64,000 bases of DNA from a virus: the IMG/VR virus record IMGVR_UViG_3300050343_000215, positions 1 to 64,000 of that record, one strand, 5' to 3'. Shown in pieces: positions 1-57,376 of the stretch. The first letter of the stretch is position 1, and each line of letters starts with the position of its first letter. The translations under genes were made by a program, and so were the position numbers. The notes beneath the pieces were generated by a model. The model was not told the origin of the DNA. It searched no databases and saw only the letters and a program-made list of their open reading frames with translations.

Positions 1-34
1 CGCTAAGACAGAAGGACATCCGCACATTATCAAG

Positions 35-9479: not shown

Positions 9480-9564
9480 AGGAAGATGTGAGATTTGAAC
9501 TCACGGAGGTGTGATCCTCTCCAGTTTTCAAGACTGGTGCAATAAACCGCTCTGCCAACCTTCC
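9480..9564 (-). tRNA. trnS: tRNA-Ser (anticodon TGA)
   Basis: Acceptor GGAAGGT/ATCTTCC, anticodon arm CCAGT-CTTGAAA-ACTGG, long variable arm, T-loop GTTCAAATC; CCA is not encoded. Confidence 0.92.
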
Positions 9565-46953: not shown

Positions 46954-46967
46954 GAAACCTCCATAAT

Positions 46968-46991
46968 AAAAAAAGGAGGGTTACCCCCTCC
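46968..46991 (-). terminator. Rho-independent terminator
   Basis: GGAGGG-GGTAA-CCCTCC followed by a T tract. Confidence 0.75.
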
Positions 46992-47014
46992 CGATTATTT
47001 ATACTACTGTAATA

Positions 47015-47182
47015 TCACTTACTGTAGGTGCGTCCACGATAACAAAATGTACCATGGGTTTGCTTACTCTCTACACAACGTGTATCATACTCAACACCAC
47101 GATATGAGGTGTGAAGAACTTGTGCGTCGTGAAGTGCAGATACTTTATTGATCTGCTTCTTGATCATGTTTAGCGTGTTCAT
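47015..47182 (-). CDS. DUF4278-like small protein (55 aa)
   Basis: Two YRG motifs (YRGVEY, YRGRTY); CAGGAG RBS; lies downstream of the riboswitch-like motifs. Confidence 0.75.
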   Translation of the reverse strand: MNTLNMIKKQINKVSALHDAQVLHTSYRGVEYDTRCVESKQTHGTFCYRGRTYSK

Positions 47183-47217
47183 TTAATTTACTCCTGAAAG
47201 TTAGGGTTTTTAATTCC

Positions 47218-47401
47218 CCGTTCCTTCAGTCGTGTGCGTCCCATGGATAACATTCAGGGGTTGATTCCTTCATGACCTCAATCAATTCCACCTTATATTC
47301 GGGAGGAATATTCTCATTTGTTCTCATCCGAATCATAATTGAATCGGCTTGAGCACAGCTGAGAGTTGAATAGAATAGTAATTCTAACATGGGATGAACG
47401 G
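47218..47401 (-). ncRNA. Second glutamine-II (Downstream-peptide)-like riboswitch with an ORF in the P2 loop
   Basis: CGTTCA-TCCCATG...CATGGGA-CGCACACGACTGAA-GGAACGG. Confidence 0.6.
47226..47390 (-). CDS. Small protein (54 aa) embedded in the riboswitch
   Basis: MLELLFYSTLSCAQAD...TPECYPWDAHD*. Confidence 0.7.
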   Translation of the reverse strand: MLELLFYSTLSCAQADSIMIRMRTNENIPPEYKVELIEVMKESTPECYPWDAHD

Positions 47402-47403
47402 CT

Positions 47404-47448
47404 CCGTTCCGCGACTTACTTGCGTCCTCCTTACGGGGGATGAACGAT
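47404..47448 (-). ncRNA. Glutamine-II (Downstream-peptide)-like riboswitch
   Basis: ATCGTTCA-TCC(hairpin)GGA-CGCAAGTAAGTCGC-GGAACGG; 5' CGTTC is complementary to 3' GAACG. Confidence 0.75.
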
Positions 47449-47454
47449 GGTAAC

Positions 47455-47500
47455 AGTGTACATTACTATTTAGTATATGTCAACTGTATAATGCAATACA
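47455..47500 (-). promoter_or_regulatory. NtcA box with sigma70 promoter and nested late promoter
   Basis: TGTA-N8-TACA 47485-47500; TTGACA-N17-TACACT 47483-47455; CTAAATA 47467-47473. Confidence 0.75.
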
Positions 47501-47502
47501 CT

Positions 47503-47700
47503 TTAATATTTTCTTAAAGTTTTAAGATGTTCTACGATGTTATCACGTACCCACATAAGTTCATGATAGCATTGTTGGTTATGAGCACACTGACGCAGTG
47601 CAGGATCTGGTTTCAATACACTCTCAATAAACAAATCTAGACCACGATTCCACTTTACTTCTTGAGATTCACTGCCATCAATAACATACTGATCTTTCAT
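47503..47700 (-). CDS. Cyanophage hypothetical protein
   Basis: KWNRGLDLFIESVLKPD...LRQCAHNQ. Confidence 0.75.
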   Translation of the reverse strand: MKDQYVIDGSESQEVKWNRGLDLFIESVLKPDPALRQCAHNQQCYHELMWVRDNIVEHLKTLRKY

Positions 47701-57189: not shown

Positions 57190-57290
57190 AAAAAGTAAGA
57201 CCATCAGGGTAATGGTGGAGTTACTATTCCCTCTGCACCCTTAGCAGAGGTATTAGAGACGTTGTTTATACACCCTATAGGTCTCGGTTT
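57190..57290 (-). ncRNA. Structured psbA 5' leader (PhotoRC-II-like)
   Basis: Three stems GAGAC/GTCTC, CCTCTGC/GCAGAGG and ACCAT/ATGGT upstream of the ATG; the family name is from memory of that motif class. Confidence 0.5.
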
Positions 57291-57297
57291 GAGGGGT

Positions 57298-57376
57298 GTT
57301 ACGAACGGTTAAGAAATGTTTTGGTTTCTTAACCAACTGACTTATTTATAATAACAGGAAACCCTAGATCTGTCAA
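57298..57376 (-). promoter_or_regulatory. psbA promoter: sigma70 plus T4 late promoter, with a palindrome and HLR1-like repeats
   Basis: TTGACA-N17-TATTAT; TATAAATA 57343-57350; GGTTAAGAAA/TTTCTTAACC 57307-57334. Confidence 0.8.

Follow-up and report, generated by a model that had tools for sequence, protein, structure and literature searches.

A putative interlocked double glutamine sensor with a small gene nested in it, in a two-gene cassette of T4-like marine cyanophages

Introduction

Glutamine riboswitches are usually viewed as compact cyanobacterial leaders. The type-1 form (glnA RNA, RF01739), represented by the Synechocystis gifB/IF17 leader, combines a CGUUC/GAACG closing helix and a variable hairpin with an ACG(G/C)AAGUA linker, a P2 helix and a 3′ strand of the form GAAGGAACG, and it is followed by a DUF4278 gene, with an NtcA box located at the promoter (PMC6212724). 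The type-2 form (Downstream-peptide RNA, RF01704) of marine Synechococcus and Prochlorococcus comprises CGUUCA, a hairpin, a CGCA linker and a GGAACGG strand, which is enclosed by a covarying helix beside the Shine-Dalgarno (SD) sequence, and the peptide encoded downstream contains the motif YRGxxY (PMC2864571, PMC6698751). An ON switch has been shown for both classes, namely for gifB and for a class-II leader of Prochlorococcus (PMC6212724). Moreover, glutamine riboswitches occur in tandem, with 157 doublets and 4 triplets described (PMC9481103). For T4-like cyanophages, glutamine riboswitch matches and NtcA boxes, including numerous GTA-N8-TAC sites, have been listed as well, and the Rfam glnA match in S-CREM1 is a 99-nt element (PMC9964418, PMC9602691, PMC3037559).

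The cyanophage matches and boxes, the tandem forms and the link between aptamer and DUF4278 were thus already known (PMC9964418, PMC3037559, PMC9481103, PMC6212724). However, the cyanophage listings contain matches only, without nested genes, an interlocked fold, a link to a DUF4278-like gene or an NtcA box at a fixed position. In the literature searched, we likewise found neither a description of genes nested in aptamers or of interlocked glutamine cores, nor an experiment on any phage copy of the cassette analysed here.

Results

Organisation of the cassette

The analysed stretch of DNA, referred to as the window, comprises 64,000 nt of a virus record of 177,686 bp that is about 95% complete. 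The source virus is a marine T4-like cyanomyovirus, as assigned by the presence of a PhotoRC-II RNA and by neighbouring ORFs that resemble nrdC and thyX of related phages. When the whole window was scanned at the Rfam gathering scores, only this PhotoRC-II RNA (57216-57311, minus strand; 79.5 bits, far over the gathering score), a known cyanophage motif associated with psbA, and a tRNA gene with a long variable arm (9480-9564, minus strand; 55.4 bits) were returned, and nothing at the cassette.

The cassette runs from 47500 to 46966 on the minus strand, which is also the orientation of the genes in its surroundings, and consists of an NtcA box, a sigma-70 promoter, glutamine-aptamer sequence, ORF1, more aptamer sequence, ORF2 and a terminator (Table 1). 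Each of the parts listed by the first-pass annotation, including the 54-aa ORF, the double-YRG ORF and the terminator with its T run, was found on this strand. Downstream of the promoter, 8 nt are followed by CGUUCA-UCCCCCGUAAGGAGGA-CGCAAGUA-AGUCG-C-GGAACGG-AGC-CGUUCA-UCCC-AUG, where ORF1 starts. ORF1 is in turn followed by AGGAACGG, a small hairpin, CUUUCAGGAG, another 8 nt and the AUG of the 55-codon ORF2, and the cassette is closed by the strong terminator.

Table 1. Features of the cassette, with positions given in the numbering of the window.
Feature	Position	Strand	Remarks
NtcA-type box TGTA-N8-TACA, TGTATTGCATTATACA	47485-47500 (core GTA-N8-TAC 47499-47486)	-	exact match; 1 nt upstream of the -35 element
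Sigma-70-type promoter TTGACA-17-TACACT	47455-47483	-	10/12 consensus positions
Late-promoter-like heptamer CTAAATA	47473-47467	-	inside the promoter spacer
CGUUC-1, 5′ strand of the closing helix of the putative outer core	47442-47446	-	partner GAACG-2 (47223-47219)
Hairpin P1a of the putative outer core, UCCCCC GUAA GGAGGA	47425-47440	-	covarying stem
Linker CGCAAGUA, then AGUCG (one strand of the shared helix P2)	47412-47424	-	AGUCG pairs with CGACU (47232-47228)
Helix of the putative inner core, GAACG-1 (47409-47405), loop GAGC, CGUUC-2 (47400-47396)	47396-47409	-	covariation
Long-range stem P1a of the putative inner core, UCCCA (47394-47390)/UGGGA (47243-47239)	47239-47394	-	encloses ORF1
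ORF1, 54 aa, phrog_504/T4-GC 430/Syn9 gp197 family	47226-47390	-	within the long-range stem of the inner core
Linker CGCACA, CGACU (47232-47228), junction GAAG (47227-47224), GAACG-2 (47223-47219)	47218-47238	-	overlaps the end of ORF1
Putative expression platform, CUGAAGG (47229-47223)/CUUUCAG (47200-47194)	47191-47229	-	covarying helix
ORF2, 55 aa, phrog_545/T4-GC 937/Syn9 gp198 family, DUF4278-like	47015-47182	-	two YRG motifs
Intrinsic terminator, GGGAGGGGGUAACCCUCCU (46992-46974), then T run	46966-46992	-	cassette end

Promoter and NtcA box

The perfect NtcA box proposed in the first-pass annotation is an exact match, and its position is conserved: 112 of the 173 unique related upstream regions contain a perfect GTAN8TAC, as compared to about 5.5 expected upon shuffling, and GTA and TAC are kept whereas the N8 is variable. 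Counted from the first CGTTCA, the boxes of the relatives start in two clusters, one between -50 and -60 and the other between -20 and -22, and lie either just upstream of the -35 element or just after a TATAAATA element. GTA-N8-TAC is enriched beyond the cassette, with 27 sites in the whole window versus 13.2 ± 3.6 in shuffles, in agreement with the numerous sites reported for T4-like cyanophage genomes (Sullivan et al., PMC3037559). Immediately ahead of the terminator, a second perfect GTA-N8-TAC (47009-47022) coincides in part with the stop codon of ORF2; the C-terminal residues of ORF2 at this site differ among the relatives.

Likewise, the claimed consensus sigma-70 promoter holds for the window, with a late-promoter-like heptamer nested in it, and a TTG(A/C)NN-16..18-TANNNT promoter is present in 136 and (A/C/T)TAAATA at -50 to -20 in 87 of the 173 related regions. 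In most relatives, the -10 hexamer is part of a perfect palindrome with covarying arms (e.g., GGTCTATAATAGACC, GGTATAATTACC and GGTGTTATAATAACACC; 47444-47465 in the window), and transcription from the late-type element upstream would yield an RNA that begins with the palindrome hairpin, directly 5′ of the sensor. Contigs of RNA libraries from three studies span 47443 down to 47067, and none of them extends over the promoter stretch 47444-47578; the contig edge near 47443 is a weak hint at a transcription start, which contigs cannot prove.

The box is centred at about -45 relative to the predicted start, and the consensus -35 hexamer TTGACA follows it. NtcA activates from a site at -41.5 and represses the gif genes (gifA/gifB) from sites at -30.5/-7.5 (PMC6316151), and the position of the box matches neither. 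In particular, the canonical activator geometry (centre at -41.5, a -10 element of the form TAN3T, no -35 element) is not found at the box. Host NtcA is probably able to bind just upstream of the promoter, where it would more likely act as a repressor than as an activator, and transcription would be driven by a strong sigma-70 promoter that a late-type element overlaps.

Pairing of the leader RNA

The first-pass annotation had placed a class-II glutamine riboswitch at the start of the leader and a second riboswitch between the ORFs. The aptamer sequence at the leader start (unit 1, 47446-47404) is present, and its pattern is unique in the 177,686-bp genome and was never seen in shuffles; the covariance models score it below threshold, with 19.3 bits for RF01704 (gathering score 33; relatives 20-30 bits) and 25.4 bits for RF01739 (gathering score 35; E = 0.006). 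Nevertheless, all structural features of RF01739, i.e., the CGUUC/GAACG closing helix, the variable hairpin, the AAGUA linker, the P2 helix and the GAAG junction, can be located in the leader. In phage ACG-2014f, where ORF1 is absent and the position of the long-range stem is occupied by UCCAG-GAAA-CUGGA with a GAAA loop, the leader reads CGUUCA-hairpin-CGCAAGUAAGUCGCGGAACGGAUU-CGUUCA-UCCAG-GAAA-CUGGA-CGCAAACGACUGAAGGAACGG, and its outer core reaches 41.1 bits with RF01739, above the gathering score, in an alignment that combines the 5′ portion of unit 1 with the 3′ portion of unit 2. In the window, the model does not align across the insert of roughly 190 nt; the element is thus missed by standard scans because real genes reside inside its stems.

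The pairing pattern was followed across about 250 related phage loci. The strands that form the ligand pocket signature (CGUUCA, CGCA, GAAG and GGAACGG) are invariant in about 230 loci. The P1a stem of the outer core differs widely in sequence between phages with complementarity kept, as exemplified by CCCACUCUUGGGUGGG, CCGAGAGAUCGG, CAGAGGAAACUCUG and CUCCUUAGGGAG. The helix AGUCG/CGACU is found as AGTCG/CGACT in 223 loci, as GATCG/CGATT in four, with GATCG accompanied by CGATT in each of them, and as a G.U intermediate in one. For the long-range stem, which can be extended to UCCCAUG/CAUGGGA, 178 unique cassettes were compared: 155 contain UCCCA/UGGGA, G.U forms arise through UCCUA (8), UCUCA (2) and UUCCA (1), and UGGGG always comes with CCCCA (5/5), so that every change keeps pairing. 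Minimum-free-energy folds recovered this stem in 73 of 83 cassettes.

Over 150 distinct sequences, 2249 of 2250 cells pair in the three internal helices, namely 750 of 750 in AGUCG/CGACU as well as in the long-range stem and 749 of 750 in GAACG-1/CGUUC-2. Compensatory changes were observed in all three, from G-C to A-U in four sequences, from U-A to C-G in two and from G-C to C-G in nine, respectively. The resulting 15 double-change cells compare with 0.7 ± 0.9 expected and were reached by none of 500 shuffles, although most paired positions are invariant and the covariation hence rests on a few lineages, each of which possibly represents one event.

In the nine sequences with a changed inner helix, GAACG-1 is replaced by CAACG and CGUUC-2 by CGUUG (GCAACG/CGUUGA), while CGUUC-1, which is invariant in all sequences, and GAACG-2 are untouched. 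The invariance renders the closing helix CGUUC-1/GAACG-2 uninformative for covariation; it is, however, the sole pairing of these strands that stays intact in the nine variants. Consequently, pairing CGUUC-1 with GAACG-2 and GAACG-1 with CGUUC-2 remains perfect in the variants, whereas pairing the strands side by side introduces a mismatch into both units.

Based on the covariation of AGUCG/CGACU, the compensatory changes in three helices and the nine variants, we favour a model in which the leader is a double glutamine sensor of two three-way-junction cores interlocked on one shared helix, the whole cassette being a two-gene operon of a T4-like cyanomyophage; we regard this joint reading as probable. 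The outer core would be of the glnA-like type I and comprise CGUUC-1/GAACG-2, the hairpin P1a, the linker CGCAAGUA, the shared helix AGUCG/CGACU and the junction GAAG. The inner core would sit within the loop of the shared helix in circularly permuted form and employ this helix from its other end, together with GAACG-1/CGUUC-2 closed by GAGC, the long-range stem UCCCA/UGGGA and the linker CGCACA.

This arrangement bears on the proposed second riboswitch. Its aptamer sequence is confirmed and far from chance, but it does not form a self-contained unit between the ORFs: the 5′ strand, CGUUCA UCCCA (47400-47390), is located at the start codon of ORF1, and the 3′ part, UGGGA CGCACA CGACU GAAG GAACGG (47243-47218), coincides with the last ORF1 codons and the stop codon. 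The notion of two class-II riboswitches in series is therefore not upheld, as the covariation favours two interlocked cores with ORF1 nested in one stem.

The strands can also be arranged as a plain tandem, in which CGUUC-1/GAACG-1 and CGUUC-2/GAACG-2 pair side by side. The second aptamer would then resemble class II, its P2 being CUGAAG/CUUCAG and its P1 loop containing ORF1, and the GAACG-1/CGUUC-2 hairpin would form in the ligand-free state only, hiding the SD sequence of ORF1 and coupling both aptamers. Such doublets are common among glutamine riboswitches (PMC9481103); in many phages, unit 1 by itself is aligned by Rfam to RF01739 and RF01704 with scores of 25-30 bits, and the RF01704 score of the compact unit 2 of ACG-2014f is 32.1 bits (gathering score 33). 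Moreover, the local GAACG-1/CGUUC-2 hairpin is part of the minimum-free-energy folds of 66 of 83 cassettes, and in 75 of 83 the folds pair CGUUCAU-1 with the start of ORF2, AUGAAC, which would constitute a simple ON switch. However, the tandem implies a mismatch in both aptamers for the nine distinct sequences in which the local hairpin stays perfect, it leaves the covariation of AGUCG/CGACU unexplained and unit 1 devoid of any P2, and the type-I consensus strand is found in unit 2 only. In addition, the L099-L104 lineage, where ORF2 starts with AUGACU, no longer has the AUGAAC pairing. We consequently deem the tandem unlikely, and a first reading of the leader, a side-by-side tandem with an OFF hairpin between the aptamers, was downgraded after the variant analysis. 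The helix GUUCAU/AUGAAC, which would sequester the start codon, cannot covary because Asn is encoded by AAC and AAU only; given its loss in the L099-L104 lineage, we keep it as a mere possibility.

ORF1 nested in the aptamer

ORF1 bears the signs of a real gene under purifying selection, with a median pairwise dN/dS of 0.25, third codon positions being most variable and indels occurring in multiples of three; the 54-aa ORF of the first-pass annotation is hence corroborated. Homologues were retrieved only from phages and marine metagenomes. The AlphaFold model (pLDDT 81) depicts a two-helix hairpin, two cysteines are conserved, and a fold search with the model against the PDB yielded nothing below E = 3.

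The reading frame is interwoven with the RNA structure at both ends. The AUG lies within the 5′ strand of the long-range stem, and at the other end (...CCA UGG GAC GCA CAC GAC UGA; stop codon at 47228-47226) the last five codons and the stop codon constitute the 3′ strand of the aptamer. Synonymous sites are frozen here: Asp is encoded by GAC in 172 cases and never by GAT, GCA is used in 177 of 177, and AAC or CAC occurs, never AAT or CAT. In the rest of ORF1, Asp is encoded by GAT in 411 cases versus 66 for GAC, and AAT is preferred as well.

In the interlocked model, ORF1 would occupy the loop that is closed by the long-range inner-core stem, and ribosomes translating ORF1 would have to melt the inner core, so that translation of ORF1 and sensing would compete. 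Two points speak against such nesting. The sole SD-like sequence for ORF1, GGAG, sits in the 4-nt loop GAGC of the inner helix and the AUG is in a stem, which makes translation of ORF1 hard to account for, and a stem of 5-7 bp is weak for closing a translated loop of 150 nt. On the supporting side, the top of the P1 hairpin was replaced in the solved glutamine-II structure and binding was kept (PMC6698751), and nesting recurs in Syn9-type phages, where the first hairpin (the outer P1a) encloses an ORF of 66 codons, with covariation over about 195 nt; pair 9-211 of this hairpin is C-G in 23, U-A in 23 and U-G in two sequences, a score reached by none of 500 shuffles.

Contigs of two metatranscriptome runs from different studies (X17 and X18) join 47243 to 47401 and thereby skip 157 nt, from CGUUC-2 through ORF1. 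These contigs most likely stem from relatives without ORF1, such as ACG-2014f, and not from processing.

Expression platform

The covarying helix downstream of ORF1 adjoins and overlaps the SD sequence AGGAG of ORF2 (47195-47191). It occurs as CUGAAG/CUUCAG and as CUAAAG/CUUUAG in 19 cases each, with 15 G.U intermediates and no A-C pair, and the base that covaries occupies the central position of the ORF1 stop codon (UGA or UAA). In L004, L010, L013, L017 and other loci, the platform loop is enlarged after GGAACGG by a 30-nt insert with a covarying hairpin, the loop of which is mostly GAAA (CAUC-GAAA-GAUG, CUGC-GAAA-GCAG, CACC-GAAA-GGUG); ACGGAUCC and GAGAAGGUU border this hairpin.

With its 5′ strand, the platform helix extends over the GAAG junction and two nucleotides of the shared helix; it may hence represent the ligand-free alternative rather than a part of the bound fold. 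Without glutamine, CUGAAGG/CUUUCAG beside the SD sequence of ORF2 would take two bases of the shared helix as well as the whole GAAG junction. With glutamine, the interlocked fold would be stabilised and CUGAAGG drawn into the sensor, thereby freeing CUUCAGGAG and turning on ORF2. From this overlap we infer a glutamine ON switch for ORF2, in keeping with the switches of gifB and the Prochlorococcus class-II leader (PMC6212724). However, CUGAAG/CUUCAG encloses GAACGG and covaries, and it shares bases with AGUCG/CGACU, which covaries too; an equally valid reading takes the platform helix for a class-II P2, in which case it would be present together with the bound ligand instead of competing with binding.

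ORF2 and DUF4278

With a median pairwise dN/dS of 0.14 and the third codon positions being most variable, ORF2 is likewise under purifying selection. The claimed DUF4278-like double-YRG peptide could be verified as a sub-threshold relative, since Pfam DUF4278 (PF14105) matches ORF2 with 22.2 bits (E = 1.9e-4), below the cut-off of 25.3. The ORF2 family, which comprises 73 representative clusters in a HMMER search of the whole library, matches DUF4278 at E <= 0.01 in 13 of 19 members (best 3e-6) and contains the repeated YRGxxY core, with Y27, R28, G29, Y48 and R49 being invariant and G50 nearly so. Correspondingly, the AlphaFold model (pLDDT 80) shows an N-terminal helix followed by two YRGxxY beta-hairpins. 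A fold search with this model against the PDB returned nothing below E = 3, and a profile search against PDB sequences gave no match. The lineage with the GAUCG/CGAUU variant of the shared helix (L099, L101, L103 and L104 in IMG/VR) contains a downstream gene starting with MTTITYRGVKYD, which corresponds to a DUF4278 N-terminus of the host type and lacks the MNTL helix specific to phages. Weinberg et al. reportedly noted that the motif YRGxxY is PII-like.

The first-pass annotation further suggested that the small proteins retune nitrogen assimilation by acting on glutamine synthetase (GS). In this scenario, they, and ORF2 especially, would bind and inactivate host GS in the manner of IF17 or IF7. 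ORF2 has the YRGxxY core in common with DUF4278, the N-terminal domain of IF17 (PMC6212724), and the control logic resembles that of gifB. However, DUF4278 is dispensable for GS inactivation by IF17, and it is the IF7-like C-terminal part that carries the arginines needed for GS binding (PMC6316151). This part is not found in the 55-aa ORF2, which ends five residues after the second YRG. Furthermore, it has been argued that marine picocyanobacteria lack GS control by IF-type factors (PMC6316151), ORF2 stays under the Pfam cut-off, no match to a solved structure was obtained, and ORF1 has no cellular relatives. As ORF2 is devoid of the IF7-like part, DUF4278 is dispensable and no sequence or structure links the proteins to GS binders, an action on GS is unsupported, and we judge it improbable.

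Distribution of the cassette

A blastn search retrieved the block from 417 cyanophage records, mostly of the Kyanoviridae, and also from the unrelated myovirus S-TIM5, and a peptide-pattern scan of IMG/VR yielded at least 582 stretches confirmed by tblastn. In most records, the conserved stretch extends from the first CGTTCA to the stop codon of ORF2. In cellular genomes, the phage-type riboswitch junction was found in five MAG contigs only (L250-L254, from MAGs with the labels Synechococcus, Verrucomicrobiales and Euryarchaeota), and these contigs resemble phage DNA that was binned in error.

Discussion

The leader described here combines traits of the known glutamine riboswitches. With the type-1 form (PMC6212724) it has in common the closing helix, the variable hairpin, the linker, the P2 helix, the 3′ consensus strand, the NtcA box at the promoter and the DUF4278-like gene downstream, and a translational ON switch is to be expected. 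In contrast to this form, the P2 loop of the phage element would accommodate a further core, circularly permuted and about 190 nt long, with a translated gene of 54 codons in it; moreover, the consensus G of the linker is replaced by C, the element is phage-borne, and in the window it stays below the Rfam gathering score. The CGUUCA strand, the hairpin, the CGCA linker, the enclosed GGAACGG beside the SD sequence and the YRGxxY peptide are reminiscent of the type-2 form (PMC2864571, PMC6698751), from which the phage element differs in that the hairpin loop is a whole gene, the enclosing helix directly abuts GAACGG without a spacer, the 5′ strand of this helix is also part of the shared P2, and the scores range from 19 to 32 bits versus a gathering score of 33. 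As in tandem riboswitches (PMC9481103), two cores reside in one leader, which probably results in a steeper response; in contrast to the described doublets, the cores appear to be interlocked on a shared helix, not arranged as neighbours with a platform each, and they contain coding sequence. The glnA match of S-CREM1 resembles the form without ORF1. At the level of the whole cassette, the combination of an NtcA-type box, a glutamine-aptamer RNA and a DUF4278-like gene supports a parallel to the control logic of gifB (PMC6212724, PMC6316151).

It is very improbable that the strands are relics that no longer bind glutamine, with the helices serving mRNA stability or translational coupling in a constitutive small-gene operon: despite the sub-threshold Rfam scores in the window and the extreme conservation of the paired strands with few informative changes, all ligand-pocket signature strands are invariant in about 230 loci, synonymous sites included, and ACG-2014f, a relative without ORF1, exceeds the Rfam threshold.

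The interlocked model invites a further-reaching proposal, which we advance tentatively and as somewhat less secure than the fold itself. An interlocked double glutamine aptamer would have received protein-coding genes in its hairpin loops and still work, the passage of ribosomes through the nested gene and sensing would gate each other on one RNA, and the phage would read host glutamine as well as 2-oxoglutarate, the latter via NtcA, to time two or three small effector proteins. If this proposal is true, the architecture is one that has been undescribed for riboswitches of any cell or virus. If the fold binds glutamine, it would represent a natural aptamer split by coding sequence and two aptamers with a common helix, and translation would be tied directly to metabolite sensing. 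In either case, a very widespread phage version of the glutamine riboswitch hides from standard scans. The cassette also provides a handle on the DUF4278 small proteins, which are abundant in Prochlorococcus and Synechococcus, and, if the fold binds glutamine, cyanophages of the ocean would monitor the nitrogen status of their hosts at two levels.
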